Below, piece after piece: positions 1,174-20,907 of a stretch of DNA of 64,000 nt. The position numbers and the translations under genes were made by a program. Source of the stretch: Peptococcaceae bacterium UBA5752. GTDB lineage: Bacteria > Bacillota > Dehalobacteriia > UBA4068. The DNA lies in assembly GCA_002419055.1 (NCBI GenBank), contig DIFI01000021.1, positions 24,102 to 88,101 of the forward strand. The letters are read 5' to 3'. How positions within the stretch are numbered: position 1 is the first letter of the stretch; every line of letters begins with the position of its first letter. The notes beneath the pieces were generated by a model. It was given only the letters and a program-made list of their open reading frames with translations, had not been told where the DNA came from and did not search any database.

Positions 1174-1425
1174 GTGTCTAACTAAAGCACAGCGGTAATC
1201 TCTTGTATCATTGTTGTTACATAACAAAAATCCTTTTTATAGCTAATAATATATATTGTATCCGGCAAAGAATAATCTATAGTGTAAATAATTTTATAGA
1301 GGCCATTTACAATTATTTACAAGAATGGTATAATTAAACCGTTATATTTATTAATGTATAACGAATTGACGTGTGTCAATTTTCGCCATAACGGCTGATA
1401 AAAAATAGATATTGGGTGGGTGAAA

Positions 1426-2496
1426 ATGCATTTAAAAAACTGTTTGATACTGGCTTGTATTATATTTGGCATAGTATTTCTTCTTGGTTGTGATGCCAAA
1501 ACTGATGAAAATACTATTGCCGACTACTCTAATGAAGAGATAACTGTTTCCGGCCTTGCGGATGAGGATTTTACTGTCACTGTTGCGGACTTGGCCGCAC
1601 TGGACAGCGTTGAGCGCAGCGCTTCCGCCCAGCGCTCAAATGGAGAGGAAGTTTCTATTGACGCGGTCGGCCCCCTGTTGGATACTTTTTTAGCACAGTA
1701 TGGCAAAAGTCAGAGCGATTTTACCAGCATCCGCTTTACAGCTTTCGACAAATATTCCATTACTGTTGACAGTCAAGTGCTGGATAACAGGGAAATTGTG
1801 CTGGCGGTTGCGGATGGAGGCGATGCGCTTTCCAAAGATGACCAGCCGCTGCGGGTGGTGATACCGGGGGAGAGGGCGATGTACTGGGTTCGTCATCTTT
1901 GCCGCATTGATTTTGAAAGCGGCGAGACAACCAGTCAGTGCCGGAAGATGGTCTTTCTTTCCGCGGCAGTACAGACGCTCAAAAGCAGTGATTATGATTA
2001 TAACGGCGTAACGGATCAGGTGATTGCTGTCGGCGATTTGCTTGATGCTTATGCGGACAGTGAAAATGCCGATACGGTATCTCTGATTGCCGCCGACGGT
2101 CTGACAAAATCGGAAACCGCCGCCAACTTCCGTTCCGGGTTGCTTAAATACACGGGTGCGGATGCTCCGCGCTTTGTTGCCGATGAGCTTCCGGAAGGGA
2201 TGCAAATTTATGACTTGTTGATGATCGGTTATGGGCAGATGGAATTTCTAACGTTGGATAAACTGATTTCACTCTATGGAAACGAGGATGGTATTTTATT
2301 CTTTGATGTTACCCAAAAGGCTAACGGAGTAAGCGCGGAAAGTTATGTCTTCACTTGTCAGGATGGCAGCAGCGTTACGCTTCCCGTAGACGAGCTGCAG
2401 GATGCGACACTTTCTTTGGACGAAGAAGGCCGAGTTATTTTGCAACCTGCTAGCGGTGAGAAGGTAATTGACCTGCTGCAAATTGAGGCGAAATAA
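1426..2496 (+). CDS. Secreted lipoprotein with two tandem sulfite-oxidase/YedY-like (Oxidored_molyb-like) domains
   Basis: Lipobox FLLGC after a hydrophobic N-terminus. ATG 1426 is preferred over GTG 1420 given the upstream GGGTGGG. The motif QPLRVVIPGERAMYWVRHLCRIDF resembles the YedY/SO C-terminal strand. No Cys at the Moco-ligand position. Confidence 0.65.
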   Translation: MHLKNCLILACIIFGIVFLLGCDAKTDENTIADYSNEEITVSGLADEDFTVTVADLAALDSVERSASAQRSNGEEVSIDAVGPLLDTFLAQYGKSQSDFTSIRFTAFDKYSITVDSQVLDNREIVLAVADGGDALSKDDQPLRVVIPGERAMYWVRHLCRIDFESGETTSQCRKMVFLSAAVQTLKSSDYDYNGVTDQVIAVGDLLDAYADSENADTVSLIAADGLTKSETAANFRSGLLKYTGADAPRFVADELPEGMQIYDLLMIGYGQMEFLTLDKLISLYGNEDGILFFDVTQKANGVSAESYVFTCQDGSSVTLPVDELQDATLSLDEEGRVILQPASGEKVIDLLQIEAK

Positions 2497-3275
2497 TGAT
2501 AAAAAAACGCTGGCCATGGCTGTTAATAATAATACTGGCAGCGGTAGCAGCATATATCTCAGGCAGGCTGATGCAGCCAGCCTATACCCCTGTAATATAC
2601 ATTGTTGGCGATGTTGAGAAATGTTTAGAAACAAATGATATAGACAAGCTGGGGGATTTGCAACAGGTTGATTTTGATAGCGATACATATCAAGCGGTAA
2701 CACTTGCGGATGTTGTTGCCGCAGCGCAGCCCGCTGCACAAACCAAGAGGGTTCTGATGATTGCGGACGATGGGTTTTCGGTGGAGATAGCAGGGGATAC
2801 GCTGGATGATTGCTGGCTGACCTTTACCCCTAAAGATGGTTGGCGCGTTTTGGCTCCGCTGCATCCGCTCTCCGCCAACGGCACGCATATTTGGCGCATT
2901 GTGGTAGTTGCTGACAGTAGCAGCCAAACTGCTCTTACGGTAACTGCCGGCGGCGAAACGAGCAGCTTTACAATTGGACAATTGTATGCAGGAACAACAA
3001 TCAGCTTCCCTTATCCGGAAGGAACGGCGGAAAAGGCAACGGATGACGTTGTTTATTCCTCTACTGTCTATACCCGTCGTGATTGCCTGACATTGGCGCA
3101 GCTTGGCTGTGATGAGGCCGCTGAAATACAGATAAACGCGGCAAATGGTCAAAGTCTGACTGTGAACTCGTCCGAAACAGGGCTGTTCCAGCTGAACGGT
3201 AATAGTTTGAGTTATATCAATGCAATACAGCGCAAACAAATGGAAGATGTTGATGAAATTGTGGTACTGAAGTAA
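2496..3275 (+). CDS. N-terminally membrane-anchored protein with an SO/YedY-like half domain
   Basis: TAATG overlap with the upstream gene (translational coupling). N-terminal TM WPWLLIIILAAVAAYI. Motifs VTLADVV...VLMIADDGFSVEIAGD...THIWRIVVV. Confidence 0.55.
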   Translation: MIKKRWPWLLIIILAAVAAYISGRLMQPAYTPVIYIVGDVEKCLETNDIDKLGDLQQVDFDSDTYQAVTLADVVAAAQPAAQTKRVLMIADDGFSVEIAGDTLDDCWLTFTPKDGWRVLAPLHPLSANGTHIWRIVVVADSSSQTALTVTAGGETSSFTIGQLYAGTTISFPYPEGTAEKATDDVVYSSTVYTRRDCLTLAQLGCDEAAEIQINAANGQSLTVNSSETGLFQLNGNSLSYINAIQRKQMEDVDEIVVLK

Positions 3276-3351: not shown

Positions 3352-5274
3352 ATGAACAAATTTAATTTCAAATCACAATGTTTATATAGTTCTAACATAA
3401 AATTGGTGACAATTGCCTTGCTAATGATTGCATTAATTGTTTTTGCTTGGCCTGCACAGCCAGCTTCGGCGGCTAATGCTTTGACCGTGCAGGTGAGCAA
3501 AGGCGGTGAAATCGCAAAAGTTGCAAGCTACAGCAAAGAAGATCTGGAAGCGCTGGGTACGGTGCAGCAGTATTATTCTTCGGTGGATGCTAACAGTGCA
3601 CCGGTAGTAGTTGTGGCGCGCGGCGTGGCCATATCTACCCTGATGGCCGATTTGGGTATTAATATCGCGGATGCTGAAACTTTGCGCTTTGCTTCCTCTG
3701 ACGGCGGCAACCGCAGCTATAGCGTAGCGACTTATGTTTCCGCAGCACGTTATTATTATCCGCAGATTGTAGACGGTTACGATGCGGATGCCGATGAAAT
3801 TCCGGCATTCGTAGCCGGTGCTGATCAAGAAAAAGTTAAAGTCAGCGCTATGTTGGCATTAGCCAGCTATGAAGGACGCTATCAATCGAAGCCAGACGCT
3901 TCACAAATGAGCTCTGCCAATGGTTTACGATTTTGCTATGGGCAAAGCGCTATTAACGAAGCGGTTTCCCTTAATTACAACAAATATATAAACAGCCTGA
4001 CTATTGTCCTCAAAAGCAGCAGTAGCTATCAACTGCCCGAAGAAGATGAGAGCAGTGGAGAAAGCAGCGGTGATACTGCCATACCCAGTACCGGTATTCC
4101 GGAAGTTCTGGATAGGGAAGGATTGATGGCGGATACGCTGACCATCACTGTGGGCTATTACGGCGGTACATATTATACAAAAAAGGTTTTTACCTTGGAA
4201 GAACTGCAGGCCATGGCCAATGTGCAGCAGGTATATAGCTGTATCGATAATATGCCGGCGGTATGTCTGGATGCAGCGGTTGGCGTGAGGCTAACGGATA
4301 TATTGGCGGCGGCTGGTATAGATGTCAATTCAGTGCAGAGCTTCCACTTTTATTGTGCGGATGTCTCCCGAACTTGGTATACGTCCATGAGTAAAACATA
4401 TTTGCTCGATACGCCGCGTTATTATTATCCTAATTTGCCGAAAAGCTGGGATTATGATGAAGCTAAGGCTATTTCCGGCGCGACTGCCGGTGCGCGGGAG
4501 GTTGATGTTATCTTAGCACTGCAGGATAAATGGCGGCGTTTTGCTATGGAAACGGATTATAGTGATCTTACCGATACAACCCGCTTTCGCTTGCTGTTCG
4601 GCCAAAGTGACGTCTATACCGTGGAGGGCTCCCGTTCCGCCAAATGGGTACATACCATAGCCGTCACGCTGGGCGGATCACCACCCAAGGGTGTTACTCT
4701 TAACGCCTCTGCTTTGGATCTGACAGTTGGCAGTGATTATCAGCTTTCCGCTACAGTGGAAAAGACAGATCAAACCACCGATACCCGCGTCATCTGGAGC
4801 AGCAGTGACGAAGATATTGTTTCCGTAGATAAATCAGGCAATATTACGGTTAAGGGCGACGGTCAAGCTACCGTTACCGCTACTACTGTTTTCGGTGGAT
4901 TGACTGCCACTGTGGTGATAAACGGCAGCACCGATGCGGCTGACAGTACCGCCACCGGCAGCAGTACCAATACCAATGGCAGTAACACAACCGGCGGCAG
5001 TAATTCTACGGAGGGCAAGGAGGATACCGATTCTGCTGATGCGGCGCAGACCGAAACCGGCGGCGTATATCGTATTTCGGTAGGTGGCTCGGATACAGCG
5101 AATAGTGAGGCAGGTGTTCAAAGGTGGCGGGACAGTGAAATGGCTGCCAACGCGGTAGCGCTTCCGGATATAGAAACGGATAGTCCTTTGATGAGGATTA
5201 CATTAATTGCAATACTGGCTTTATTTATAGTCGGTATTCTTGGCAGAATAATTATTTATCGTTTGGAGGTATGA
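3352..5274 (+). CDS. Secreted 640-aa surface protein: two RYYYP-type domains, Big_2 domain, S/T/G/N-rich linker, C-terminal TM anchor
   Basis: Signal peptide ending ASA/AN. Motifs ARYYYPQ and PRYYYPNL. Big_2-like VTLNASALDLTVGSDYQLSA...VTATTVFGGLTATVVI. C-terminal LIAILALFIVGILGRIIIYRLEV. Confidence 0.75.
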   Translation: MNKFNFKSQCLYSSNIKLVTIALLMIALIVFAWPAQPASAANALTVQVSKGGEIAKVASYSKEDLEALGTVQQYYSSVDANSAPVVVVARGVAISTLMADLGINIADAETLRFASSDGGNRSYSVATYVSAARYYYPQIVDGYDADADEIPAFVAGADQEKVKVSAMLALASYEGRYQSKPDASQMSSANGLRFCYGQSAINEAVSLNYNKYINSLTIVLKSSSSYQLPEEDESSGESSGDTAIPSTGIPEVLDREGLMADTLTITVGYYGGTYYTKKVFTLEELQAMANVQQVYSCIDNMPAVCLDAAVGVRLTDILAAAGIDVNSVQSFHFYCADVSRTWYTSMSKTYLLDTPRYYYPNLPKSWDYDEAKAISGATAGAREVDVILALQDKWRRFAMETDYSDLTDTTRFRLLFGQSDVYTVEGSRSAKWVHTIAVTLGGSPPKGVTLNASALDLTVGSDYQLSATVEKTDQTTDTRVIWSSSDEDIVSVDKSGNITVKGDGQATVTATTVFGGLTATVVINGSTDAADSTATGSSTNTNGSNTTGGSNSTEGKEDTDSADAAQTETGGVYRISVGGSDTANSEAGVQRWRDSEMAANAVALPDIETDSPLMRITLIAILALFIVGILGRIIIYRLEV

Positions 5275-5275: not shown

Positions 5276-5908
5276 ATGTTTGCGGAAAATTTAAGTGTTG
5301 CCCTACGGGCAGTGGCAGAAAACCTGCGTAGTCCGGTGATGTGTATTCTGCTGCTGTTGATCATAATAGCGGTAGTAATGTTTGGCTCCATGATAGCGGA
5401 GATTTTTACCGAAAGAATGCGGCTCAAGGCAAAGATGCCCCGATTGGTGGATGATATTAAAGACGAAGATAAAGAGTTGGCGGATACTATCGAAAAAAGC
5501 GGATTGCTCAAGCGTCAGAAGAATGCCTTATTGGAATTGATAATTCATCCGGAATTGACACCTGTGATGCGTGAAGCTTTAGCCAGACGTCTGATTTTTG
5601 AGGAGCAGAACCATTATGACCGGATCGTTAAAATCACTGATTTGATTTCGCGGCTTGGCCCGATGCTGGGTCTGCTTGGTACGCTGATCCCCTTGGGGCC
5701 GGGGCTGATTGCCTTAGGACAGGGAGATACATATTCTTTATCTCAATCCCTGCTTACTGCCTTTGATACAACCATTGCAGGTTTGGCCTCAGCCGTACTG
5801 GCTTTTGTGATATCCGCTATCCGTAGGAGCTGGTACGAAAACTATATGACGATGCTCGAAGCTTTGATGGAATGTATATTGGATAGGGAGGCCGGCCATG
5901 CAAAATAG
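5276..5908 (+). CDS. MotA/TolQ/ExbB-family proton-channel protein (3 TM)
   Basis: GGAGGT RBS. The start lies 1 nt after the upstream stop. Family signature LGPMLGLLGTLIPLGPGLIALGQGD...LLTAFDTTIAGLASAV. Topology is TM1, cytoplasmic loop, TM2-TM3. Confidence 0.75.
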   Translation: MFAENLSVALRAVAENLRSPVMCILLLLIIIAVVMFGSMIAEIFTERMRLKAKMPRLVDDIKDEDKELADTIEKSGLLKRQKNALLELIIHPELTPVMREALARRLIFEEQNHYDRIVKITDLISRLGPMLGLLGTLIPLGPGLIALGQGDTYSLSQSLLTAFDTTIAGLASAVLAFVISAIRRSWYENYMTMLEALMECILDREAGHAK

Positions 5909-6221
5909 TTTAAGAGGCGGCGGCTTGCGAAGCGGCCGTACGCAAAGTGATTTTAATCCTATGGATGGTTTGGCTAATTTGGCCGACTGTATGCTGGTTT
6001 TGGCCTGTGGCCTGCTGCTTTCGTTGATTGTCAGCTGGAATCTGGATATCGCGGTGGACGAAACCGTGGCAAGTCCCAACGAAAGCGCTGTTAGCGAGGT
6101 AGATGGCGTGGAGAATAGCGATCTAAATTCCATAGATGAGAACAGCGGTTATAAGGAAATGGGAAAGGTTTATAAAGACCCAAAGACCGGGCAGCTTTAT
6201 ATGGTAATAGATGATAAATGA
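5898..6221 (+). CDS. ExbD/TolR-like single-pass protein with short acidic C-terminal domain
   Basis: Overlaps the exbB-like stop (ATGCAAAAT at 5898, with GGGAGG upstream). FNPMDGLANLADCMLVLACGLLLSLIV resembles the ExbD N-terminus/TM. The periplasmic part is only ~55 aa and D/E-rich. Confidence 0.55.
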   Translation: MQNSLRGGGLRSGRTQSDFNPMDGLANLADCMLVLACGLLLSLIVSWNLDIAVDETVASPNESAVSEVDGVENSDLNSIDENSGYKEMGKVYKDPKTGQLYMVIDDK

Positions 6222-6240
6222 TAAAGGGGGAAGGGATATT

Positions 6241-8229
6241 ATGAAAAAGATCAAGGGTATATTACTGGTATTATTGACATTGTCGCTGGTGCTTTTTGTA
6301 GCTCTGCCGGCTATGGCAATTGACCCGGTGGAGCCCAGCGACACTCTGGAAGTCTGCCTTAAAACGGCGGACGGTACAGTAACGCTGCATACTTACACAT
6401 TGGCCGAGATGGAGGCCCTAGCAGACGGGGAGGATATCTGCTATTCCGGTATTGATGCCATGCCATGCACGGTAAAAACCGTGGCCAGCGGCGTTTATAT
6501 CGAGGATCTTTTGGATGATGTAGCGCAGTATACCACTATGGACGTATGGGATTTTTCTAAGCTGCGTTTCACATCTACCGATGGCGCGACAGGCATCTTT
6601 ACCGAAGACGATCTCTTCTGCGACCGCTATTATTTTGCTGCACTTCACGAAGAAAGCGGCGGGCTAAATGAAGATGGTTTAGTAGATTACGATTATGGAG
6701 AGGGCGAATTGGTTCAGCCAATGCTTTCCATCAGTGCCGAGCAGGGTCGCCGTCCGATGCCGTCAGAATTCCGCGATGATTATAACCCGGAGCGCTATAC
6801 CATTCTTTTTGGTATAACTGAGGATGAAGTAGAAAACGCTACCCAGCGCGTTTCTCAGTACAAGCGCGGCGTATATAAAATGGTTATTGATCTGGGCAAT
6901 GTATCCGCGCCTCAAGTGGCTGTAACGGGCATTGCTCTTGATAGAACCAGCGACAAGGTTTATACCGGCAAATCGATCCAGCTTACAGCTATCATTAGTC
7001 CGAGTGATGCGACTAATACGGGGGTTACCTGGAGCAGCAGTGATCAGTCGGTAGCGAAGGTATCTTCCACAGGGGTTGTCACAGGGGTTGCCACAGGAAC
7101 AGTTACTATCATCGCTACAGCTGCCGGAAATACCGCATTTAGTGCATCCTGTAACGTAACCGTATCCAACCGGAGCGTATCGGTTTCGGGCGTTTCTTTA
7201 AGCCAAAGCAGCCTGTCATTGGGAGTAGGCGGTAAAAAAGAGCTGACCGCCACCGTACTGCCCGGCAATGCCGACGAGCGCGACGTGACTTGGTTAAGCA
7301 GCAATGAAAAAGTTGCAACTGTCGATGACGGTATGATCACTGCCGTTGCCGTGGGTCAGGCTACTATAACCGTCGAGACCTCTGACGGCGGTTACACCGC
7401 TGTATGCACGGTTACCGTCACAAATGAGGCGATTGCCGTCACCGGAGTGACGCTGAACCGTACTGCCGTATCACTAGCCAAAGGCAGCAGCTTCCAGCTT
7501 GTTGCCAATTTCAGTCCGGAGGGCGCTTCCAATATGGCTGTTGTTTGGAGCAGCAGCGCACCGGGCGTTGTTGCAGTGGATACCAATGGCCTACTTACTG
7601 CAAAGAATATCGGAACCTCGACTATTACCGTTCTGACAAGTGAAGGCAGCTTTACCGCGCAATGTCTGGTAAAGGTTGCGGATTCGGTCGAAGCTTTCAG
7701 TGATATATCGGGTAATTGGGCGAAGACGTATATTGAAAGCATGGTGGATGCAGGATTTATTAGCGGCTATACTGACGGCAGCTTCCGTCCTATGGCTAAC
7801 ATTACCCGTGCTGAATTCATAAGCATACTCATCCGCATCCTTCAAAGCGCCAAGGGTGAAACATTGCAAACAGGGCATGTATTTAACGATACGTCAGCAC
7901 ATTGGGCTAAGGACTATATTTCCACCGCGGTAGCACTTTCGATTACTTCCGGCTACGGCAACGGTAATTTTGGCCCCAATGACCCAATCACCCGCGAGCA
8001 GATAGCAGTAATGCTGACCAAGGCTGCGGATTCAAGCGGCAGCACCACCGCCACCAGCTTCACCGATGTAGCTAAGATTTCCTCCTGGGCGGTTTCTTCT
8101 GTTGCTTATGCTGCGGAACAGGGATGGATCAGTGGCTACAGCAATGGCAGCTTTGGTCCGCAAAGACAAGCCACCAGAGCAGAAGTATGTGCGTTACTCT
8201 GGCGTTTTTATCAACAGATCAATGGTTAA
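6241..8229 (+). CDS. SLH-anchored surface protein: RYYYP-type domain, 4x Big_2, 3x SLH
   Basis: ATG 6241 after GGGGGAAGGG. Signal peptide ...ALPAMA. Four repeats of the type VTGIALDRTS...VTWSSSD...ATGTVTI. Three C-terminal SLH motifs (FSDISGNWAKTYIE.., FNDTSAHWAKDYI.., FTDVAKISSWAV..). Confidence 0.85.
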   Translation: MKKIKGILLVLLTLSLVLFVALPAMAIDPVEPSDTLEVCLKTADGTVTLHTYTLAEMEALADGEDICYSGIDAMPCTVKTVASGVYIEDLLDDVAQYTTMDVWDFSKLRFTSTDGATGIFTEDDLFCDRYYFAALHEESGGLNEDGLVDYDYGEGELVQPMLSISAEQGRRPMPSEFRDDYNPERYTILFGITEDEVENATQRVSQYKRGVYKMVIDLGNVSAPQVAVTGIALDRTSDKVYTGKSIQLTAIISPSDATNTGVTWSSSDQSVAKVSSTGVVTGVATGTVTIIATAAGNTAFSASCNVTVSNRSVSVSGVSLSQSSLSLGVGGKKELTATVLPGNADERDVTWLSSNEKVATVDDGMITAVAVGQATITVETSDGGYTAVCTVTVTNEAIAVTGVTLNRTAVSLAKGSSFQLVANFSPEGASNMAVVWSSSAPGVVAVDTNGLLTAKNIGTSTITVLTSEGSFTAQCLVKVADSVEAFSDISGNWAKTYIESMVDAGFISGYTDGSFRPMANITRAEFISILIRILQSAKGETLQTGHVFNDTSAHWAKDYISTAVALSITSGYGNGNFGPNDPITREQIAVMLTKAADSSGSTTATSFTDVAKISSWAVSSVAYAAEQGWISGYSNGSFGPQRQATRAEVCALLWRFYQQING

Positions 8230-8259
8230 CGGGTAAATGTTTACCGGAAAGGAGCAGAT

Positions 8260-9687
8260 ATGAAGAAGTTAAAAAAGACGGGCCTGTTTTTCTGCGTCTT
8301 GGTGGCAATTTTGATCCCTACTATGTCCTGGGCGGGAGCAACAAGTAGTCTCGATATTACCGGCCCCTGTTACGAGATGCTTTCACCCACCAACAGCGCT
8401 ACTGAGATGGCAGTTACCTGGTGGGATGCGCTGGAGGTAAACACAGCCTCTGTGCAATACAGCACCAGTTCGAACTTTAGCAGTGGTGTTTTCAGTGTTG
8501 CAGCTACCTTATCCAAAAACGATACCACTAACGGATATAGCGCTTTTGCGGCAACGATGACCAATCTTACCGCTGATACTACTTATTATTACCGCGTTGG
8601 TAATGTCACCGCTTGGAGCGATACCAATAGTTTTACAACCGGTGATGCAGCCTCGGCCAGCAGCCTTTCCATCATGTATCTGGGCGATGCCCAGTATGCA
8701 AGCTATAATGCCGCAGTAGAGGAGTATGCTACCTGGGGTAGTTTGATCAATGGCGCATATACAAAATTTCCCAATCTTGATTTTGCGTTAATGGGCGGTG
8801 ATTTAGTTAGTCTAGGTCAGTCGGCTGTCGATTGGCAGCGTTTCTACAATAATGCTAGTCCGGTATTTTCCAAATTGCCTGTATTAGCAGTGCCCGGCAA
8901 CCATGAAAGCAATGCAACTTCCGGCAAGCCGGAGCTGTTCCTGAAACTGTTCGATTTGCCGACCAACGGCCCCACAGGTTTTGAAGAGGAATTCTATTCC
9001 TATGATTACGGAAACTGTCATATCGTTTGTTTGAGCAGCAGCATATTCCTCGATGAGCAATTAGCAGCCGGCACTATGACCGAAGCTGACTTCGACACGA
9101 TTAAGCAGTGGATTGCCAGTGATTTGGCTGATTCCGATGCAACCTGGAAGATTGTGGTCATGCACCATCCTGCTTATGCGGTAGTCAGCGACGACACTGC
9201 TGTTGATGTATTGGCGAACTGGGCGCCGGTTTTTGTCAATGCACAGGTAGACTTGGTCTTATGTGGTCATCAGCATGTTTATATGCGTACCGAAGCGATT
9301 AAGGGCGTTACCTATGTGATGGGCGTATCCGGCAGCAAGTTTTATGCGCCGGCTACTGTGTCCTATTCTGAGTGTATGATCGGCTATACCAGCAATTATG
9401 AAATCATTAACGCTGATAGCAACAGTTTGACGGTAACGGCTTATGATTCTACTGGTACCAGTTTGGATACAGTGACGATTAAACCAAAAAATAGGACCAT
9501 CACGCCGACTTGGCCTGAGGATATTGTCGGTGACCTCAACGGCGACGGGTCTATTACCTCTGCCGATGTAACACTACTGATTAGCGCGATTTTAACCAAT
9601 GCTGCTTATTCCACTGTCATGGATGTAAATGATGATGGAAAAGTAAACATCTGTGACGCTCATCAGCTTAGCTTAAGCTTACTATAA
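8260..9687 (+). CDS. Purple-acid-phosphatase-like metallophosphoesterase with C-terminal dockerin
   Basis: AAGGAG RBS and a signal peptide. Fn3-like PAP N-domain (TTYYYRVGN). Metallophos motifs GDAQY, GGDLVS, GNHE, MHHPAY, CGHQH. C-terminal DLNGDGSITSADVTLL and DVNDDGKVNICDAHQL dockerin repeats. Confidence 0.85.
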   Translation: MKKLKKTGLFFCVLVAILIPTMSWAGATSSLDITGPCYEMLSPTNSATEMAVTWWDALEVNTASVQYSTSSNFSSGVFSVAATLSKNDTTNGYSAFAATMTNLTADTTYYYRVGNVTAWSDTNSFTTGDAASASSLSIMYLGDAQYASYNAAVEEYATWGSLINGAYTKFPNLDFALMGGDLVSLGQSAVDWQRFYNNASPVFSKLPVLAVPGNHESNATSGKPELFLKLFDLPTNGPTGFEEEFYSYDYGNCHIVCLSSSIFLDEQLAAGTMTEADFDTIKQWIASDLADSDATWKIVVMHHPAYAVVSDDTAVDVLANWAPVFVNAQVDLVLCGHQHVYMRTEAIKGVTYVMGVSGSKFYAPATVSYSECMIGYTSNYEIINADSNSLTVTAYDSTGTSLDTVTIKPKNRTITPTWPEDIVGDLNGDGSITSADVTLLISAILTNAAYSTVMDVNDDGKVNICDAHQLSLSLL

Positions 9688-9704
9688 GGAAGGGGGATCA
9701 GCAA

Positions 9705-11402
9705 ATGCGAGTGAGTGATAAACTAAAAATCTTCGTTTTACTGTCTGTAATCTTTTGTTTGATATTGCTGCCGACTGTATGCTTGGCCGCCGGCACCAAA
9801 GTGTCGGATGCCGTCAATAATATATTCGTCTATGCTGACGATGCCACCGGCGCTCAGGTTTTACTTAAAGTCATTCCATTATCTACCCTTAAGTCAATGT
9901 CACATGGTAGTGATGGTACAGCCAATACCGACTATTACGGTTCTTTTCTTGACGCCTATAAAACGCCGACTTACTTAGAAGGGCAGGGCGTTACCATACC
10001 TGAGCTGCTTACCTATGTCAAAAAGAACTCTTTGGTGGCAGATGTTGGTTCGCTGACTTATGCCGGATCGGATATACTATATTTTACTTGCTGCGACGGC
10101 GCTTCCGTTAATTTTACCTATGATGCGCTGTATGGTACTGAATTAAACCCGGTGAACCGCTATTATTATCCAGCCTTATATGATTACTGGGACAGTGAAA
10201 ACGTTGAAGTGCCGGATGCTGATGAGGCTACAGTTTTGGCAAGCGGCATTTCGGCACCGGTTTATCTTGCAACCGTATCCAAGGGCGGACGGGTATTTGC
10301 CAGCGCCGGCGGCACAAATATTTCCTCTTATGTTACAGCTAACGATGGCGTGGTCAGCGGTTGCCTGGCCGGTCAACTTACGGATGAAGATGCGCTGCGT
10401 TTAATCTTTCCGCAGACTGCCAGCGATATTCAAAGTAGTACCGATACATTAAGTTTTATCAAAAAATGGGTGTATAAGGTCCGGCTGAAAACAGCTGAGA
10501 CTTCACCGATTGCCTCGCTTGGTACGATCAGCAATCCCACATGTACCTATACCCTGGACGGCACCACACTCACTATCACCATGAGTTGTGAGGATGCAAA
10601 TGCTTCTCTCTATTATTCAACCATCGGTGGTTATACCGCCACGCCGGTAAACCTCTATACCGAGCCGATAACCGTGGAAAATTACGATACCAGCAAGCCA
10701 TTCACCATCAGCGTGATGGCGGTACGGGAAGGTTATGTGAACAGTACTGCTATATCCGCAAGCTCCGCCAATTATACCGATGGCGAGGGCGCGCCCAGTT
10801 TCACCTATGCTTTAACTTCATCCGATGCTACGCCCACGGTTGGCACCGCTTTTGATCTTTCGGTGACCCTTGCTGCCGATAAAGATTATACGCTTTACGG
10901 TGCCGAATACCGCGTTTCGGTACCGGCAGCTTATACAGTCAACAGCGTTACTCTCGGCACCGGCTGGCAATATGGTACAGCCACTTACGCTAATGAAGCG
11001 ACAATTGTCACATTTACCTATCTGAATACTACAGGGACTGCTGAAACCGCAACTACTGCCGTGCCGGTGGGGTCAATTAATTTGATTCCGGTTACGGCAG
11101 GTGATACTTCCGTTACGGTCAGTGAAGCGATTGTAACCAAAAGCGATGCTACCGCTTACACCAATATTACAGCCGCAGATTCAAGTTTCACGGTTGAGAG
11201 CAATATCACGCTCGGCGATGTGGATAGTGACAGTTATATCACTATGGGCGATGCCCTGCAAGTATGTAAGACTGTGGCTAAGGTAGTGACTCTAAACGAT
11301 GATCAGAAAAAAGCGGCTGATGTAGACAAAGACGGCTATATCACCATGAGCGACGCACTACTCATCTGCAAATATGTAGCCAAAGTTATCAGCGAATTTT
11401 AG
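9705..11402 (+). CDS. Secreted adaptor-like protein: RYYYP-type domain, Fn3/CHB_HEX_C-like, cohesin-like domain, C-terminal dockerin
   Basis: RBS GGAAGGGGGA and a signal peptide. NRYYYPALYD. Cohesin-like FDLSVTLAADKDYTLYGAEYRVSVPAAY...VTFTYLNTTGTAE. Dockerin-like DVDSDSYITMGDALQVCK and DVDKDGYITMSDALLICK. Confidence 0.8.
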   Translation: MRVSDKLKIFVLLSVIFCLILLPTVCLAAGTKVSDAVNNIFVYADDATGAQVLLKVIPLSTLKSMSHGSDGTANTDYYGSFLDAYKTPTYLEGQGVTIPELLTYVKKNSLVADVGSLTYAGSDILYFTCCDGASVNFTYDALYGTELNPVNRYYYPALYDYWDSENVEVPDADEATVLASGISAPVYLATVSKGGRVFASAGGTNISSYVTANDGVVSGCLAGQLTDEDALRLIFPQTASDIQSSTDTLSFIKKWVYKVRLKTAETSPIASLGTISNPTCTYTLDGTTLTITMSCEDANASLYYSTIGGYTATPVNLYTEPITVENYDTSKPFTISVMAVREGYVNSTAISASSANYTDGEGAPSFTYALTSSDATPTVGTAFDLSVTLAADKDYTLYGAEYRVSVPAAYTVNSVTLGTGWQYGTATYANEATIVTFTYLNTTGTAETATTAVPVGSINLIPVTAGDTSVTVSEAIVTKSDATAYTNITAADSSFTVESNITLGDVDSDSYITMGDALQVCKTVAKVVTLNDDQKKAADVDKDGYITMSDALLICKYVAKVISEF

Positions 11403-11463
11403 CTTAGTTGATTATACTCTGCCTTAATATAGATCAAAAAAAAAATTTAAGGAGTGATAGAAA

Positions 11464-14400
11464 GTGTTACAAAAGTTGAAGAAAAAGAACCTGACGGTGT
11501 TAGTAATCTTCATAATGGTTCTAGCCCTTTGCGTTGCTTTACCGATTCTGGCGACAGCGGAAGGCACTGCGACCGTTACAGTGGGCAGTACGACTACAGC
11601 AGCAGCTCCCGGAGATAGTATAACCATCCCCGTTGTCATTACCAGTAACCCCGGTATTACTGCATATGGATTTGCGATTTCGTATGATAGCTCAAATTTG
11701 ACATTGGATAGTATTTCGAAAACGGATAATGATTCGAATACGACCGATCTTTGCACTTCCGGTAGTTTTACCCCCAATACAGCATCTGCAGGCACTGGCT
11801 ATGTTAGCTGGCTGGATGGCGGTGCGGATATTACCGGCACCGGAAATTTGTTCTATTTAACTTTCACCGTCAAGAATACTGCGATGGGTGGCAATTATGC
11901 TGTTTCCTGCACTTTAACCGACGGTAGTGCTGCTAACTGCAAAAACTATGCCGGGTCAAATGTTGGCGTATCCTTCACTGACGGCATTATTGAGGTAGTA
12001 GCACCCGACACAACCGCTCCGACAATGACGAGCGTTGCTCCTGGCGAGGGCTTAGTAGCGCTGGGCGCTAGCGATAACCTCGTGCTTACCGTAACGGCAG
12101 ATGACGACGCGGCGCTTTCCGAGCTGGAGATCGACCACAGCATGGAGGGCACGCTGCCGGAATTCAGCGTCTACGCCGACATTGCGAACCCCTACGGCAC
12201 GGCAGATGATAAAGCTCAGTTTGAATCTGCCGGTGTTTCCGTAACCTACGCTGATGGCGTTTGGACGATTGATTTTGGCAGCACGATAACGAATACTATA
12301 GTGAATAACGGCGGCATCACCTTTTACATGGTGCTCAAGGATACGTCCGGCAACAGCTGGGGCAGCATGAGCCCGACTACTGCCGAGAATACCTATGCCT
12401 ATACCATAGCGCGGGACACAACCGCTCCGACTATGACAAGCGTTGAACCGGCTGAAGGCGCGGTGGAGCTGGACGCCAGCGAGGACTTTGTACTGACCGT
12501 GACGGCGCATGACGATATTGAGCTGTATGAGCTTGAGATCGACCACAGCATGTCAAGCACATTGCCGGAATTCAGCGTCTACGCCAACAGCGAAAACCCC
12601 TATGGCACAGCTGAGGATAAAGCTGAATTTGAAGCCGCCGGTGTTTCCGTGACCTACGGCGGCGGCGTCTGGACGATCGATTTTGGCGATACAGCAACGG
12701 ATGCTTTCGTGGCAAACGGCGGCATAACCTTATACATAGTAGTCAAGGATATGGCCGGCAACAGCTGGGGCAGCATGAGCCCGACTACTGTCGAGAATAC
12801 ATATGCATACACGATTACCCGCAAATACATTGCGGCGGCTAATTTCACTGACGGAGTCTATGCAATTACATCGGGCGGCGAATATAAGCTCGCTACTGAT
12901 GCGGCAGGGACGATTCAGATCAGCACCACCGATCCGGTGACTATTAGCGGCAATGGCACGACCGGCACCGCTAACAGTGGCCTTAGCATTGATAATACCG
13001 TAGCTGGTGCGGACCTGACCATAGAAGACCTCTATATCACCGGCGCAGTTACCGGTTCCGGTATGGTTGAATTTACCGGCAAAGACAATAAACTGTCGCT
13101 TTCCGGTGTCAGCACCCTTCAACGTATCGGAGGATCAGTTTGGGGCAATGCACTGATCCATGTGCCTGCGACTGCTGATCTGACCATTGACGGCGACGGT
13201 ACAGTCTATCTGGCCCAAGATGGCGACGGTGCTGCCATCGGCGGCAATCCTTCCGAGATCAACGGTAATATCACTATTAACGGAGGCGAAATCTTCTGCC
13301 GCAGTAATAAAACAGGCTCCAGCATCGGCGGCGGCCAGAGCGCTAACGGTGGTAATATTACCATCAACGGCGGTGAACTCAATATATTCCACAACGCGCG
13401 CGGCGCCATTTTGGGCGGCGGCGGCTATAGTGGCAGTTTAGTAGGCAACGGCGGTACTGTAACCATGACCGGCGGCAATGTCTCCCTGTTTGTAAATTTC
13501 ACAGGCGCGGCCATTGGCGGCGGCGGCGGGAGCAATTCTGCTCTGGAGCAGGACGGAGGAGACCTTTATATCACCGGCGGCTCGCTCAAAACCTATATCA
13601 ACAGCAATGCACTCAGTTTCTGGGGACTCACAACCGAAGGCGTCACGCCTGTTATCATCACCGCGGATAAATCAACCGGCGTGGGCGGAAATGCAGTCCA
13701 TCTGCTTACTATGGATGTGAGCGGTGTTACGGCCAATGACACCGGCGCCGCTTATGTGGCTTATCTGGATAATGAAACCACCGATCCCATTTATTCCGGT
13801 GGGTTGCACAGCTATGCTTATACCGGTACCAGCACCAACGCTATGACATATTGGCAGAAGTCTACCACGGATAACAACCTCTACCTCTATGTCACCGGTG
13901 AGAATCATACTGTCACCGTTAATGATCAAAAATTCAATGTCACTTGGGATTCCGGCACTTCCGGCTTCAGTGTTGCGGCGGCTCCTAAAATCTGGGATGG
14001 CACTGCGAATACAGGTTGGTATAATACCACTGATACGGAATTCCATCTCACCATGGGTAACCAACTGGCCGGACTTGCGCAGATCGTCAACGGTACGGCA
14101 ACCGGCATCACTCAAGACAGTTTCAGCGGCAAGACCGTCAATATTGATAACGATATCTATCTTAACGACGGTACAACCAGTAATAATTGGACGCCTATCG
14201 GTGATATTACACACCATTTTGACGGTGTGTTTAACGGCGGCGGCTACAATATATACGGTATGAAAATTATTGCAACAAAGGGCTATGCCGGTTTATTCGG
14301 CAACGTATCCGGTACAGTTAAGAACTTTAAACTTTACGGATCTGTTACTATTAATTCGGCGATTGACGGCGATATTGCAAAAGGTAGTAAAACTAATACC

Positions 14401-17400
14401 GATAACGACTTTGTCGGTGCGGCAGTTGGTAAACTCAATGCGGGCGGTACGATCAGTAACGTCATCAACTATGCTCCCATTGAAGCCAAGGAATGCATGA
14501 ACGTCGGCGGTATCGTCGGTTTTGTCGGCACGCCCGTCACGTATGGGACGAAATCAGACGCTTATGCCGAATATAACTCCAACCCCTCCGGCAGTAACAC
14601 CTATGTGCTCAACTGCGGCAATAACGCCACTGTACATGGTTTTTACAAGCTGGGCGGTATCGCCGGTGAAAGCGCGGGTATTGTTATGTACTGCTACAAT
14701 ACCGGCTACATCCTCCCGCACATGCACGGTTCCGGCGGCGGCTGGGGCGGCATTGTCGGACGCAACGGCAACAACAACACAGCGACCGAGGTCGGCACCA
14801 TTGCCTATTGCTGGAACAGCGGTACAGTTACCGACAACGGCATGAACGATGACCACAACGAGACGATCAAGTGGTATGGCGGTATCACTGCCTTTTGCAA
14901 CAGTAAGTCTTCTGTACACAACTGTTACAACATCGGCGCAATTCCTGCCGGACGCAACACTTTTTCGTCCATCATTGGTAACTGCGAAAGCACTATGGTT
15001 TACAACAACTGTTCGCTGATTTCCACCAGCATCAATAGCGACAGCACATATGAGAAAAACTTGGGCATACAGTTTGAGGAATCTGATTTCAAGAGCGCTG
15101 CCAATACGGATACCTCTATATTGACTGTGCTGGGCCCTGTTTTTGTCGCTGATACCGGAAATATTAACAACGGATATCCTGTCCTGCGCTGGCAGGCGGG
15201 CAGCAGCGCCGAACCGACGCTAACCTCTGTTTCGTTATTCTCGGTGCCGACAAAAATCGCTTATTATGAGCTGGAGACCTTTAATCCTGCAGGTATGAAG
15301 CTTAAAGCAACATACAGTGACGGAACTTATGCAATATTATCGGGCGGCTTCACTTATCCCACCGATCCGTTGTCTGACAGCACTAACAGCGTTACCGTTA
15401 GCTATGGCGGTTTTGATATTACTCAAGCCATCACGGTCTACAATCTCGATTCTATCGCTGTTACCACACAGCCTACCAAAACGGTTTACAATGCCACCGA
15501 TTTATTTAACAGATCCGGTATGGTAGTTACCGTTTACTACAGCGATAATACTTCGAAGGTGATTTATTCATATACTTATCCTACAACTCCTTTAACTGAT
15601 GACATGACCAGCGTTACTATCGGCTATGGCGACAAGACCACTACCCAGCCGATCACGGTCAATGCTTTAGGCTTGACCGTGATCGCGGTAACAACTGTGC
15701 CGACCAAGACTTTCTATCTCCCCGACGAATCATTTGATAATACCGGTATGGTAGTTAATGCAACATATAACAGTGCAGTGGTACAGCCTTTGGCTGCGGA
15801 AGACTACGTCGTCACTCCCGCCTCACTGACCATTGGTACAACTGCGGTCACCATCAGCTTTACCTATCTTGGCGTAACTCAGACCGCGTCTACTCCGGTG
15901 ACAGTGATATCTGCAACACCTGCCTTGGTTGACGGGTATTATCAGATAGTGAGCGCAGATGATCTTCGCTGGTTCGCCGATTATGTGAGCGTCCAGGGCA
16001 ATACAACTGCCTGCGCCAAGTTGGTCAATGATATTACCCTCACCTCTGATTGGACGCAGCCGATCGGTAACAGTACCAATAAGTTTGCCGGTACTTTTGA
16101 CGGTAACGGCAAGACGATCAGCGGCCTAGATAATGCTGCGGTGACCACACAGAATTTTGGTCTTATTGGCTATGGCTTAGGGGCTACTGTCAAAGACCTT
16201 ACAGTCGGCGGCGAAATCAGCACGACCGCCTCTAATACCGGTTTGGTTGCCGGTTGGGCCGACGGTTGCACTTTTACCAATATCACAGCCAACGGTTCGC
16301 TGACCAGAGCCAGCGGTACCCTAAACAATACTGCCGGTATCACAGGTTACGCCTGCAATGCCAGCGTATTAACTAACTGCGTGAACAATGCCGCTATTAC
16401 CTCCGGCGGTCAGTATACAGGCGGTATCGCCGGCAGCGCAGACGGCGCGACCAGCTTCTCCGGCTGTATCAATAACGGTGTGATCAATACTACCCATCGG
16501 TATATAGGTGGCATCGTCGGTTCGTTCGGCGGTACGGGCAACATCACATCCTGTATCAATAAAGGTGCAGTTACTGCCACCTATAACGTTGGTGGTATCG
16601 CCGGTAGATATAACTCAACCGGCAGCATGGAGAATTGCTATAACAGCGGTGCCATCGTCGCTACCTTATCATCAACATCTACTGCTTACGCTGCAGGCGG
16701 CGTGATCGGTTATTTCGGCGGCGCCGGTACTATAGACACCTGCTACAACAGCGGTGATGTCACCGGCGCTATCGGTAATGTCGGCGGTGTGGTCGGCTGT
16801 ATGTATGCGGCCAATAGCATACTGACCAACAGTTATAATACCGGCGACGTCTGTTACACCGGCAATGCCACTACTCCTTGCGTGGGCGGCGTTGTTGGCG
16901 CGACCAATGATGTTAGCTGCACGATCCAGAACTGTTACAACCGCGGCGCGGTAACCTTTGCTACAACCAAACCTTTGATCGGCTCCGTCGTCGGTACACC
17001 CAAGATCGGATATACCGCCATCAGCAATAACTATTATCTCAACACCACTTCTGCTGATGCGACATCTACAGCCAAAACTGCCGCTGAACTGAAGAATCTT
17101 GCTGCCACTTTGGGCGCAAGCTACAAGGCAGGCGGCATTTCACCTATCTTCACCTGGCAGCCGGATGAAGTATTTACCTCCGCAGCACCGGTAGTGAACG
17201 TAGATACTGTTACCGCCGATGTTCCGGATACGATCGTCATTGGCGCTAATGCCAATGTGGAAATCAACGCTTCGGCGGTGACTGTGGAAGATATCAACAC
17301 ATCAAATGTTTCAATTCCCGCAGCTTTGGTTGAGAATCTGGACAATGCCCAATCAGTCACCATTGTGACCAACATGGGTAATATCACATTTGACAACGCT

Positions 17401-19384: not shown

Positions 19385-20722
19385 ATGAAACGATTTACAA
19401 TTACTATTATCGTTTGCATATTGATCTTTGCTTTGAGTATCTCCACCGCTTTGGCTGTTGATAACAGCAGAACATATTCTTTTCAACTCACCTCCAATGG
19501 CAGCAGTACTGCTGCCATTGGAGTGGGGGATATGATTACGGTGAAGTTTACTCTGGCGGCAGACAACAGCTATGCTTTGTATGCGATGCAGAATGAGATT
19601 AAGTATGACAGCCGCTATTTGCAATATGTTGATGGAAGCCTTAGTATGACCTCCGGTTTTAATTCCGGCTTTCGGGATATGGAGGATGGCATCAATAAAC
19701 TGGTGCTGATGAATTATGTTTCCGATACAGCAGAGGGAGAAACCATAAACTCCAGTGTCGTGGTGGGAACCTTCCAGTTGAAGGCCATCGCTAATGGAAC
19801 TTCGACTGTCAGCAACGAGGATTATTATTGCACAACCAAAACCGGTGCAAATAATTACACTGCTACCGCCAGTGATCTTATTGTCAACATTAAATCTTCC
19901 GGCGGCGGTGGCGGCGGTAGTAGTGTCACTTATTACACCATCAACGCCAGCGCCGGCGAGGGTGGCAGCATATCGCCTTCCGGCAGCGTCAGCGTAGCTC
20001 AGGACGGTTCACAAACTTTCACTATAAACCCCAACTATAGATATATTATAGAAGACGTACAGGTAGATGGCAAAAGCGTCGGCGACGTCAGCACATATGC
20101 CTTCTCCGCTGTCACTGCCAACCACACCATAAAAGCAACGTTCATTGCGGGAGAAGAGGAGCCAAACCTCACCGATCAATTCACCGACCTTGTCCCCGGC
20201 GCCTGGTATATAAACGGCATCAATTATGTTTTGCAGGCTGGACTGTTTAACGGTACCTCGGCAACCAGATTTAGTCCTGATGCCAATATGACGAGATCTA
20301 TGCTGGTAACGGTATTGTGGCGTTTAGACGGCACGCCTGACGCAACAGTAGACACCATCTTTAATGATGTGGCAGACGGTCTCTGGTACAGCGACGCTAT
20401 CGAATGGGCTGCGGCCAATAATATCGTCAACGGCTATGGCAACGGTAGGTTCGGTACCAATGACAGCATCACGCGCGAACAGATGGCGGTAATCTTATAT
20501 AACTATGCCAAAATTAAAGGTTACGATGTCAGCCAAACCACTTCACTCAGCAAATACACCGACACCGGCGATATTTCCGATTGGGCCAGCACAGCTATGG
20601 CCTGGGCCAATGCTACCGGCCTTGTCAACGGACGCACCGCTACAACTCTCGCTCCCGGCGGTACTGCCACAAGAGCTGAAGTTGCTACGATCTTAATGCG
20701 CTTTATCGAATATTACGTTTAA
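19385..20722 (+). CDS. Anchoring scaffoldin-like protein: cohesin-like domain + InlB-B-repeat-like middle domain + 3x SLH
   Basis: AGGAG RBS and a signal peptide. Cohesin-like MITVKFTLAADNSYALYAMQNEIKYDSRYLQYVDGS. Gly8 linker. Three SLH motifs (FTDLVPGAWYING.., FNDVADGLWYSDA.., YTDTGDISDWAST..). Confidence 0.85.
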   Translation: MKRFTITIIVCILIFALSISTALAVDNSRTYSFQLTSNGSSTAAIGVGDMITVKFTLAADNSYALYAMQNEIKYDSRYLQYVDGSLSMTSGFNSGFRDMEDGINKLVLMNYVSDTAEGETINSSVVVGTFQLKAIANGTSTVSNEDYYCTTKTGANNYTATASDLIVNIKSSGGGGGGSSVTYYTINASAGEGGSISPSGSVSVAQDGSQTFTINPNYRYIIEDVQVDGKSVGDVSTYAFSAVTANHTIKATFIAGEEEPNLTDQFTDLVPGAWYINGINYVLQAGLFNGTSATRFSPDANMTRSMLVTVLWRLDGTPDATVDTIFNDVADGLWYSDAIEWAAANNIVNGYGNGRFGTNDSITREQMAVILYNYAKIKGYDVSQTTSLSKYTDTGDISDWASTAMAWANATGLVNGRTATTLAPGGTATRAEVATILMRFIEYYV

Positions 20723-20874
20723 GTAACCAGTAAATTGACATTTAGCATAAAATTATAAGACCTTCCAATATATTGCAGTGCCCCCTAAGAAGACACAGGA
20801 AAAAGCGTGCAAAATCTACTTAGGGGGTATTATTATGGGTGAACATAGGAATTATGGTTTGGAAATTTAAACAA

Positions 20875-20907
20875 AAGGCCTGATATCTTTAAAATATCAG
20901 GCCTTTT
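20875..20907 (+). terminator. Rho-independent terminator (AGGCCTGATAT...ATATCAGGCCT TTTTT)
   Basis: Perfect 11-bp inverted repeat plus a T-run, downstream of 19385..20722. Confidence 0.55.

Follow-up and report, generated by a model that had tools for sequence, protein, structure and literature searches.

What is a phosphoesterase that carries a dockerin doing on the outside of a bacterial cell? The question is raised by a 64-kb window (the whole stretch of DNA analysed, 64,000 nucleotides (nt) of contig DIFI01000021.1 from Peptococcaceae bacterium UBA5752), in which the gene g07 (8260..9687, + strand) encodes a dimetal phosphoesterase with the fold of the purple acid phosphatases (PAPs), a predicted secretion signal, and a C-terminal dockerin. 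The preliminary description of this locus had taken g07 for a PAP-like enzyme recruited to a cohesin scaffold in the style of a cellulosome, with phosphate or nucleotide scavenging as the implied activity. We found that g07 belongs to an operon whose recurrent members and Mo/W-type regulatory elements point elsewhere, and we consider its most likely role, which we hold to be somewhat probable, to be extracellular hydrolysis of a phosphoester or pyrophosphate within the acquisition of molybdenum or tungsten (Mo/W) or of Mo/W cofactors.

The g07 open reading frame (ORF) encodes 475 amino acids (aa) and starts with an ATG preceded by an AGGAG ribosome-binding site 7 nt 5′ of it. Its N-terminus (MKKLKKTGLFFCVLVAILIPTMSWA, followed by G) is a Sec-type signal without a twin-arginine motif (8260-8334), and the protein is thus predicted to be secreted. 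There follow a PAP N-domain (8377-8640; Pur_ac_phosph_N, PF16656, aa 40-127, 60.6 bits against a Pfam cut-off of 30), a Metallophos domain (8680-9282; PF00149, aa 141-341, 61.2 bits, cut-off 21.5), and a dockerin (9529-9672; Dockerin_1, PF00404, aa 424-471, 41.0 bits, cut-off 22.9). The five motifs on which the preliminary description based its dinuclear-metal phosphoesterase are all in place, namely GDAQY (aa 142-146, nt 8683-8697), GGDLVS (aa 179-184, nt 8794-8811), GNHE (aa 213-216, nt 8896-8907), MHHPAY (aa 301-306, nt 9160-9177), and CGHQH (aa 335-339, nt 9262-9276); these are the motifs of the calcineurin-like metallophosphoesterase superfamily, conserved here with the motif-I His changed to Gln145. 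An AlphaFold2 model of g07, computed with 27 homologues as input, had a mean pLDDT of 91.8, and when it was compared with the PDB using Foldseek the top 23 matches were all plant PAPs (E 6e-24 to 1e-19, TM ~0.72 relative to the target for the best matches), with lupin PPD1, wheat purple acid phytase, and kidney-bean and sweet-potato PAPs as the top folds and mammalian PAPs, PhoD, GpdQ, and Mre11 ranked lower. Pfam and Foldseek therefore both recover the pairing of an Fn3-like N-domain with a metallophosphoesterase domain that defines the PAP fold, and the Fn3-like N-domain of the preliminary description stands. No curated NCBIfam model claims the protein, the matches in that scan (nucleotidases, phosphodiesterases) all being far sub-threshold, and the public database names are automatic ones ('fibronectin type III domain-containing protein', 'metallophosphoesterase', 'CpdA'). 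In a set of 1.84 billion proteins the family counts 267 representatives when taken at 50% identity with E<=1e-30; the residue and anchor counts given below refer to the 120 closest cluster representatives (35-78% identity).

Fold and domains are those of a PAP, but the metal site is not. In a profile-to-PDB alignment, the GDvQ of the g07 family is paired with GDLG of kidney-bean PAP and its GDlVn with GDLSY, and so the seventh PAP ligand, a Tyr, is missing: the position is Ser184 in g07 and N, E, Q, D, S, H, or G, never Tyr, in the 120 representatives. Six residues of the strict-PAP ligand set D,D,Y,N,H,H,H are present (D143, D181, N214, H302, H337, and H339). Taken as a metallophosphoesterase site, however, the ligand set, which the preliminary description had left to be checked in an alignment, is complete (D143, Q145, D181, N214, H302, H337, and H339, plus H215). 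D181, N214, H215, H302, and H337 are invariant in the family, D143 is kept in 119/120 and H339 is His in 118/120, while residue 145 of motif I is Gln in 115 and His in the other 5. Other metallophosphoesterases canonically have His as their motif-I ligand, and a motif-I Gln is presumably also found in ADPRibase-Mn (2nxf, among the fold matches of g07). The dinuclear site accordingly looks complete and strongly selected in the aligned sequences, as a D-x-Q variant. Judged by its residues, g07 fails strict PAP family membership and is best described as a PAP-fold, non-purple metallophosphoesterase, for which, lacking the Tyr ligand, a purple colour is not expected. The plant enzymes compared (kidney-bean 2qfp/4dhl, sweet-potato 1xzw, the lupin diphosphonucleotide phosphatase PPD1 3zk4, and wheat phytase 6giz) have the same two-domain fold, an Fn3-like N-domain and an alpha/beta-sandwich metallophosphoesterase, and match the g07 profile at E 1e-17 to 1e-20, though at only 15-18% identity; they share with g07 six of the seven metal-ligand positions and the GNHE His. 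They differ in their Fe(III)-tyrosinate ligand (GDLSY, where g07 has Ser and its family N/E/Q/D) and in motif I (GDxG rather than GDxQ), and, unlike them, g07 is bacterial, dockerin-tagged, and encoded in an operon under Mo/W-type control.

The dockerin of g07 consists of two 12-residue Ca-loops, DLNGDGSITSAD (aa 425-436, nt 9532-9567) and DVNDDGKVNICD (aa 455-466, nt 9622-9657), with D/N/D/D at positions 1/3/5/12, and in the AlphaFold2 model the loops lead into helices at aa 434-445 and 464-474. A phmmer search of the PDB with g07 returned the dockerins 2ccl_B and 2y3n_B and the dockerin region of 2yik_A. Two tandem Ca-loop/helix repeats of ~22 residues with a profile match are the marks of a type I dockerin, and the two-repeat dockerin of the preliminary description thus holds. 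Its remark that a dockerin on a phosphatase is unusual is half right: our literature search on dockerins with metallophosphoesterases, calcineurin-like proteins, or PAPs found no paper that describes a dockerin-bearing phosphoesterase, but within the family the module is common. When the 120 relatives were surveyed with jackhmmer profiles derived from the SLH and dockerin modules of the window itself, the C-terminal module proved to be a dockerin in 46, SLH in 37, and both in 1; most of the remainder end in a transmembrane helix, a hydrophobic tail, or basic Fn3-like repeats, and neighbour proteins in Sporotomaculum have Cu_amine_oxidN1 domains in place of other anchors. The catalytic core, as far as these sequences tell, is constant and the means of holding it on the cell variable, with anchors that are interchangeable. 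From this swapping of anchors we argue that the dockerin serves surface retention and assembly rather than recruitment to a polysaccharide-degrading machine. The cellulosome-style targeting proposed earlier also finds no counterpart in the window: of the 42 ORFs in it that were scanned for domains, none has a glycoside hydrolase (GH), carbohydrate esterase (CE), polysaccharide lyase (PL), or carbohydrate-binding module (CBM) domain. With neither a dockerin-bearing glycoside hydrolase nor a CBM-scaffoldin among these ORFs, the complex is not a cellulosome.

The operon comprises ten co-directional genes, all on the + strand, over ~19 kb (1420-20722), with g07 as the seventh; gaps of 17-77 nt or overlaps separate the genes, one strong promoter stands at the head, and one terminal hairpin at the end. 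The promoter-like site is a TG-extended TTTACA-17-TATAAT (1306..1334, +), the best (11/12) of 38 such sites in 1-20000, and the perfect 16-bp hairpin with flanking T/A tracts at 20873..20907, a bidirectional terminator, closes the operon. The first gene, g01 (1420..2496), encodes a lipoprotein (lipobox FLLGC, no twin-arginine motif) with a sulfite-oxidase-family (SUOX) domain (Oxidored_molyb, PF00174, 39.2 bits, cut-off 24) that is devoid of the Mo-ligating Cys; its PLRVVIPG..YWVRHL matches SorA, and no Cys lies between the lipobox and that motif. The product of g02 (2496..3275) has 259 aa, an N-terminal transmembrane helix, and no known domain, and is conserved in the cluster. Two SUOX-like repeats, a Pfam Big_2 domain, and a C-terminal transmembrane anchor make up the secreted g03 (3352..5274), in which Oxidored_molyb reaches 22.2 bits, slightly under the cut-off. 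Then come g04 (5276..5908), a MotA/TolQ/ExbB-family proton-channel protein (PF01618, 43.6 bits), and g05 (5961..6221), a DUF2149 protein (PF09919, called in L001; L numbers denote retrieved loci) of the family of HmuV from the hmu operon of P. gingivalis. Upstream of the enzyme gene lies g06 (6211..8229), whose wall-anchored product has a SUOX-like N-domain, 3 Big_2 domains, and 3 SLH repeats by Pfam, and downstream of it lies g08 (9705..11402), encoding an adaptor of 565 aa that combines a SUOX/PruR-like N-domain and an Ig-like domain with a cohesin (~10797-11204) and a terminal dockerin (11211-11378, 41.8 bits). The cohesin of g08, which has no Pfam call, rests on BLAST to g10 and a structure match. 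One domain is common to g03, g06, and g08, the N-domain of g06 being homologous to g03; Oxidored_molyb/SUOX-like domains are called above the cut-off in g01 and also in relatives of g03 and g08; together with a structural match to PruR, they add to the case for a Mo/W link.

The last two genes encode the scaffold and its anchor. The scaffold g09 (11464..19356) has 2,630 aa, two Pfam cohesins (11572-11907, aa 37-148, 44.6 bits; 17728-18072, aa 2089-2203, 44.5 bits), and a degenerate C-terminal dockerin-like module (19159-19326) that scores only 11.7 bits with Dockerin_1, whereas g10 (19385..20722) has a cohesin (19514-19885, 26.8 bits, cut-off 24.1) and three SLH repeats (113.8 bits). The two cohesin ORFs to which the preliminary description had pointed as binding partners are therefore real and lie in the same operon as the enzyme. 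The binding modules of the operon amount to three Pfam cohesins and one structural cohesin (g08), two Pfam dockerins and one degenerate one, and SLH anchors, and since the four cohesins are only 28-31% and the three dockerins 31-33% identical to one another over full-length alignments, distinct, one-to-one pairings are suggested. Candidate partners for the dockerin of g07 are the g08 cohesin and either cohesin of g09. The chain would run from the wall to the SLH-cohesin protein g10, from there to the dockerin-bearing scaffold g09, and on to the dockerins of g07 and g08; it is supported by the scaffold orthologue of Ca. Formimonas warabiya, which ends in SLH repeats itself and needs no separate anchor.

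The hierarchical layout of adaptor, scaffold, and anchor is common to known cohesin-dockerin systems and this operon. Taken together, the cohesin + SLH anchoring scaffoldins of cellulosomes (C. thermocellum OlpA/OlpC, 3ul4 and 4dh2) and the non-cellulosomal systems (the glycosidase/toxin complexes of C. perfringens, 2vo8 and 2jh2, and the cohesin of Archaeoglobus fulgidus, 2xdh) offer the same set of modules, with paired Ca-loop dockerins, cohesin beta-sandwiches, and a cohesin anchor that bears SLH repeats. The cargo, however, is a phosphoesterase and SUOX-like binding proteins instead of the glycoside hydrolases of the known systems, with no CBM, and this complex, from a Peptococcaceae-type anaerobe known by metagenome, appears to be a small assembly of fixed stoichiometry encoded in one operon. 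Long Gly/Asn/Thr-rich repeat regions fill parts of g09, with faint Glug/Flg_new matches in its orthologues, and its central domain (~aa 830-1250) recurs in Oscillibacter (L039, L078) as stand-alone SLH proteins behind ModE-type operators.

Which of these partners matter to the enzyme can be read from its neighbours in other genomes. We retrieved 80 genome loci, all but one of them labelled Bacillota or unassigned; among their sources are Peptococcaceae, Pelotomaculum, Syntrophomonas, Desulfoscipio, Sporotomaculum, Dethiobacter, Oscillospiraceae, and Anaerovoracaceae. The cluster is carried by two cultured organisms, Sporotomaculum syntrophicum FB and Ca. Formimonas warabiya DCMF. In the synteny set of 49 independent loci of >=15 kb, at least one other cluster gene stands beside the enzyme gene in 39. 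MotA/ExbB and DUF2149 occur together in 25/49 (MotA in 26, on the strand of the enzyme in 25 of these), g03 in 28, the g08 N-domain in 27, which places g08 among the enzyme's most frequent neighbours across genomes, and g01 in 23, while the giant scaffold g09 is found in only 8. The recurring companions of the enzyme are thus SUOX-like surface proteins and the MotA/ExbB-DUF2149 pair, and the counts make cohesin-dockerin scaffolding a lineage-specific way of holding these companions together. At least 8 loci (Formimonas, L003:1590-4359, and L014, L033, L048, L066, L071, L082, and L087) have, within the cluster or next to it, an ECF-type importer made up of a PF09819 'ABC_cobalt' S-component, two ATPases, and CbiQ/EcfT. 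Its S-component gene is repeatedly paired with one for a small membrane-anchored Oxidored_molyb (SUOX)-like protein, and it is a candidate importer for the cluster.

Three further observations concern these loci. The enzyme homologue is split in an Oscillospiraceae metagenome-assembled genome (MAG; L031:1736-2227 and 2255-3250), by frameshift or pseudogene formation or by an assembly error. Large cluster proteins at L050:11575-15579 and L007:11449-15900 combine a Shr-like haem-binding (Hb-interacting) domain with Oxidored_molyb-like and Fn3_assoc modules and with either Cu_amine_oxidN1 or Flg_new, which recalls the kinship of the MotA/ExbB-DUF2149 pair with haem uptake (Hmu). A phmmer search of the PDB with the L050 Oxidored_molyb protein gave no match.

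The regulatory elements around the cluster are of Mo/W type, and two kinds were found. The first is the riboswitch for the molybdenum or tungsten cofactor (Moco/Tuco, RF01055), of which 16 sites were detected in 11 related loci at 58-77 bits (Rfam cut-off 36), all on the strand of the cluster and each directly 5′ of a gene for one of its secreted proteins. The RNA directly precedes the enzyme homologue in five loci, two of Syntrophomonas type (L074, L084), two of Desulfoscipio (L049, L068), and that of Sporotomaculum syntrophicum FB (L050), and other cluster genes in 6 more, among them the scaffold homologue in L006 and L013. In the three loci examined for it (L074, L049, and L084), the aptamer is followed by an intrinsic terminator ahead of the start codon. 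A covariance model built from six of the Moco matches (R1) was used to extend the search, with each new match re-validated by Rfam. The aptamers are mostly 116-126 nt long, and this length together with one alignment suggests the form without P3, which tracks the use of the tungsten cofactor (Regulski et al. 2008, PMC2408646). In E. coli the Moco RNA is an OFF switch, and its known regulon comprises Mo/W transporters and Mo transport, Moco biosynthesis, and Moco-using enzymes and proteins (PMC2408646). The same canonical aptamers and terminators here stand upstream of g07 homologues, while surface phosphoesterases, cohesin scaffolds, and MotA/ExbB-DUF2149 pairs are not reported as members of the Moco/Tuco regulon in the searchable literature; a search on the Moco riboswitch with ExbB or metallophosphoesterases returned nothing relevant, and we found no paper that places the cluster in the Moco or the ModE regulon. 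Two other RNAs were seen in these loci. In L006, a Sporobacter MAG, a cyclic di-GMP (c-di-GMP-I) riboswitch (RF01051, 44 bits) and a Moco riboswitch lie in tandem (13153-13244 and 13315-13450) just upstream of the giant cohesin-scaffold homologue, an arrangement that could give two-input control by c-di-GMP and Mo cofactor. A pan RNA motif (RF01749) that is conserved in Desulfoscipio and Sporotomaculum ~7 kb upstream of the enzyme gene (L049:2440-2557, L068:2432-2549, L050:2509-2628) appears unrelated to the cluster.

The second element is found in the window itself. An inverted repeat of ModE type, CGTTATAT-N8-GTATAACG (1340..1363, +), lies 6 nt past the -10 box and 57 nt before g01, and is unique within the window; it has the form CGTTATAT-N8-(A/G)(C/T)ATAACG, overlapping a promoter, that characterises the ModE regulon. 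The modA promoter of E. coli K-12 (L089:1547-1570) carries CGTTATAT-N8-ACATAACG, with arms and spacer of equal length and 14 of 16 arm bases identical, and we take that palindrome to be the established ModE-molybdate operator. The exact pattern lies beside cluster genes in L017 and L039/L078, and exact or near-exact copies adjoin cluster genes in L003, L017, L039, L078, L044, and L057, at the head of the gene string in Formimonas and, in L044 and L057, 165-350 nt ahead of the enzyme gene. A search of the window and 82 independent loci that allowed up to 2 mismatches counted 12 sites, where ten block-shuffles averaged 1.3. In L031, the gene directly upstream of that for the enzyme encodes a ModE repressor domain (TIGR00637, E 2e-14). 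On this sequence evidence the operon appears to be switched by the supply of molybdenum or tungsten, and would presumably be induced when these run short. Separately, a perfect 34-nt ModE-type palindrome (ACAACCGTTATATTTTAATATATATAACGGTTGT, L017:19849-19872) stands directly behind the gene of a 1,710-aa scaffold-like SLH protein and precedes that of a CobW/HypB/UreG-family GTPase (19955-20644).

Several caveats attach to a Mo/W function. Searches with E. coli ModE and ModA by tblastn found neither gene in the window and gave one ModE-like match, in L031, and no riboswitch was detected in the window's own operon at the Rfam gathering score, at E<=1, or with model R1. The closest relative, L009, has neither riboswitch nor operator: in a leader alignment of the window and four relatives, only the promoter (-35/-10) is kept in L009. 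Moco RNAs are also abundant in some of the related genomes (at least 15 in S. wolfei), where they precede genes of Moco-using enzymes as well, and g08 gave no direct match to g01.

The interpretation to which the Mo/W-type elements lead is that g07 most likely works outside the cell during limitation for Mo/W or a Mo/W cofactor. As a mechanism, g07 would be exported by Sec as a dimetal phosphoesterase with a variant site (Gln for the His/Gly of motif I, no tyrosinate), and its Ca-binding dockerin would plug non-covalently into a cohesin of the wall-anchored complex encoded by the same operon, in which the scaffold g09 would in turn be held by the cohesin-SLH anchor g10. It would be one subunit of a conserved cell-surface system of Bacillota whose other parts are probably the secreted, Cys-less SUOX/PruR-like (pterin-binding-type) domains, the MotA/ExbB-DUF2149 membrane pair, and sometimes an ECF importer, with expression tied to Mo/W status through a ModE-type operator here and OFF-type Moco/Tuco riboswitches in other lineages. 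The enzyme would cleave a phosphate ester or pyrophosphate of an extracellular substrate that is handled by the neighbouring binding proteins, and the cluster may represent a novel type of system for scavenging trace metals or cofactors.

Two described systems share parts with the cluster. PruR is a secreted, Cys-less protein of SUOX fold that binds extracellular pterins (PMC11194511), and PruR (PDB 7kp2, 7kos), like g01, g03, g06, and g08, is secreted, SUOX-like, and without the Mo-ligating Cys. It is, however, a small, single-domain periplasmic protein of proteobacteria paired with a c-di-GMP enzyme, unlike the SUOX-like domains here, which in monoderm Bacillota are joined with Ig, cohesin, dockerin, SLH, or transmembrane modules. 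The similarity of the operon proteins to PruR is weak, and ligand binding by them is putative. In the hmu operon of P. gingivalis, HmuU is a MotA/ExbB protein and HmuV a DUF2149 protein (PMC11681262); the pair is thus shared with an operon for cofactor acquisition that also encodes surface binding proteins, but Hmu belongs to a diderm, has a TonB-dependent receptor and a CobN-like chelatase, and has no phosphoesterase, SUOX-like proteins, or Mo/W regulation. A more specific form of the interpretation, which we put forward tentatively and regard as unlikely to be right, makes g07 the hydrolytic subunit of an undescribed system, induced by Mo/W starvation, with which strictly anaerobic Bacillota salvage molybdopterin-type cofactors or their pterin and metal moieties. 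The wall-displayed, apo, Cys-less SUOX/PruR-like domains would capture Moco, Tuco, or molybdopterin derivatives from neighbouring cells, g07 would trim the captured cofactor, for example at the pyrophosphate of molybdopterin guanine or cytosine dinucleotide (MGD/MCD) or at a terminal phosphate, much as other phosphorylated cofactors are hydrolysed at the surface before they are taken up, and MotA/ExbB-DUF2149, along with the ECF transporter where present, would move the product inward. A broad literature search on Moco scavenging returned nothing relevant.

The main rival is the activity implied in the preliminary description, a general phosphate- or nucleotide-scavenging phosphatase that sits on a cellulosome-like scaffold and frees inorganic phosphate from organic phosphates. 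The PAP fold favours it, plant PAPs and wheat purple acid phytase being phosphorus-scavenging enzymes, as do the extracellular location and surface tethering of g07 and the weak NCBIfam likeness to nucleotidases and phosphodiesterases, far below cut-off though it is. Against it, the regulatory elements found are of Mo/W and not of phosphate type, the enzyme keeps company with SUOX/PruR-like proteins and MotA/ExbB-DUF2149 as its conserved partners and not with phosphate transporters, and there are no Pst/Pho genes or carbohydrate-active enzymes among the scanned ORFs of the window. We consider general scavenging improbable.

Less probable again is that the cluster is an apparatus for pterin sensing and adhesion, comparable to PruR-DcpA, with the scaffold as an adhesin, the SUOX-like proteins as sensors, g07 as a modifier of a signal or matrix component, and Mo/W in a secondary role. 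The PruR-like fold match and the part that PruR plays in biofilm control (PMC11194511), the tandem of c-di-GMP-I and Moco riboswitches before the scaffold gene of L006, and the adhesin-like repeats of the scaffold (Glug, Flg_new) would all suit such an apparatus; yet no GGDEF/EAL or other signalling protein is encoded in the cluster, in many lineages the enzyme gene and the head of the operon have a Moco riboswitch or ModE operator right beside them, and transport is suggested by the ECF importer and MotA/ExbB.

PAPs bind tungstate and molybdate at their dimetal site, the two oxyanions being classical tight-binding inhibitors and phosphate analogues. The g07 domain could for this reason be conceived mainly as an oxyanion trap, whose dimetal centre concentrates molybdate or tungstate for uptake with catalysis secondary or absent, and control by Mo/W-type operator and riboswitches, the conservation of all dimetal ligands in the family, and the kidney-bean PAP entries 1kbp/3kbp/4kbp among the matches of g07 are consistent with this. 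But His215 of GNHE, which in the superfamily is a catalytic and not a metal-binding residue, is invariant in 120/120, no binding protein of ModA/TupA/WtpA type or oxyanion ABC transporter is encoded in the cluster, and the importer that co-occurs with it is of the ECF type, typically for vitamins and cofactors and not for oxyanions, so that we give the trap slender odds. That g07 is a catalytically dead structural module, a pseudo-enzyme kept as a component of the scaffold, is very improbable, for although the Tyr ligand of PAPs is lost, the six ligand positions and the catalytic His vary little or not at all in the 120 relatives, and Gln145 alternates only with His, a canonical ligand.

The operon is embedded in a chromosomal setting. 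It is flanked by genes with housekeeping functions (nusA-infB, pnp, the glycine cleavage system, and formate-tetrahydrofolate ligase), the GC profile is unremarkable, and an origin from a phage or mobile element was rejected on both grounds. The nearest named relative is Peptococcaceae bacterium UBA4068, and the relatives in general are Peptococcaceae, Syntrophomonadaceae, and similar anaerobes. Just past the operon terminator is a Cu/Zn superoxide dismutase (Sod_Cu) gene (21012-21515, - strand), a notable find in an apparent strict anaerobe, and 3 kb downstream of the operon an SLH-anchored protein (Fn3_assoc / CHB_HEX_C and 3 SLH) is encoded at 23914-25296 (+). Between the DUF6320 gene and the operon promoter there is a 44-aa, extremely basic ORF (MGDKNIKKEAKKKKKTDVK..., 920-1052, +), which is called as a gene on a JGI metagenome contig as well.

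If the interpretation favoured here is true, the cohesin-dockerin 'Lego' of cellulosomes also builds a small, operon-encoded surface machine unrelated to the breakdown of polysaccharides, and the dockerin is evolutionarily exchangeable with SLH repeats and membrane anchors on one and the same enzyme. The Moco/Tuco and ModE regulons of anaerobic Bacillota would then include a class of extracellular proteins, made up of a phosphoesterase, binding proteins of SUOX/PruR type, and, in monoderms, a pair resembling ExbB/ExbD, that is absent from current descriptions of Mo/W homeostasis. It would also become testable whether bacteria take Mo/W cofactors or their precursors from outside, beyond the uptake of oxyanions, which would be especially relevant to syntrophic anaerobes that depend on W/Mo for formate and aldehyde metabolism where sulfide limits free Mo/W; and should the salvage form of the interpretation hold, this would be the first bacterial pathway for the salvage of Moco or pterin.

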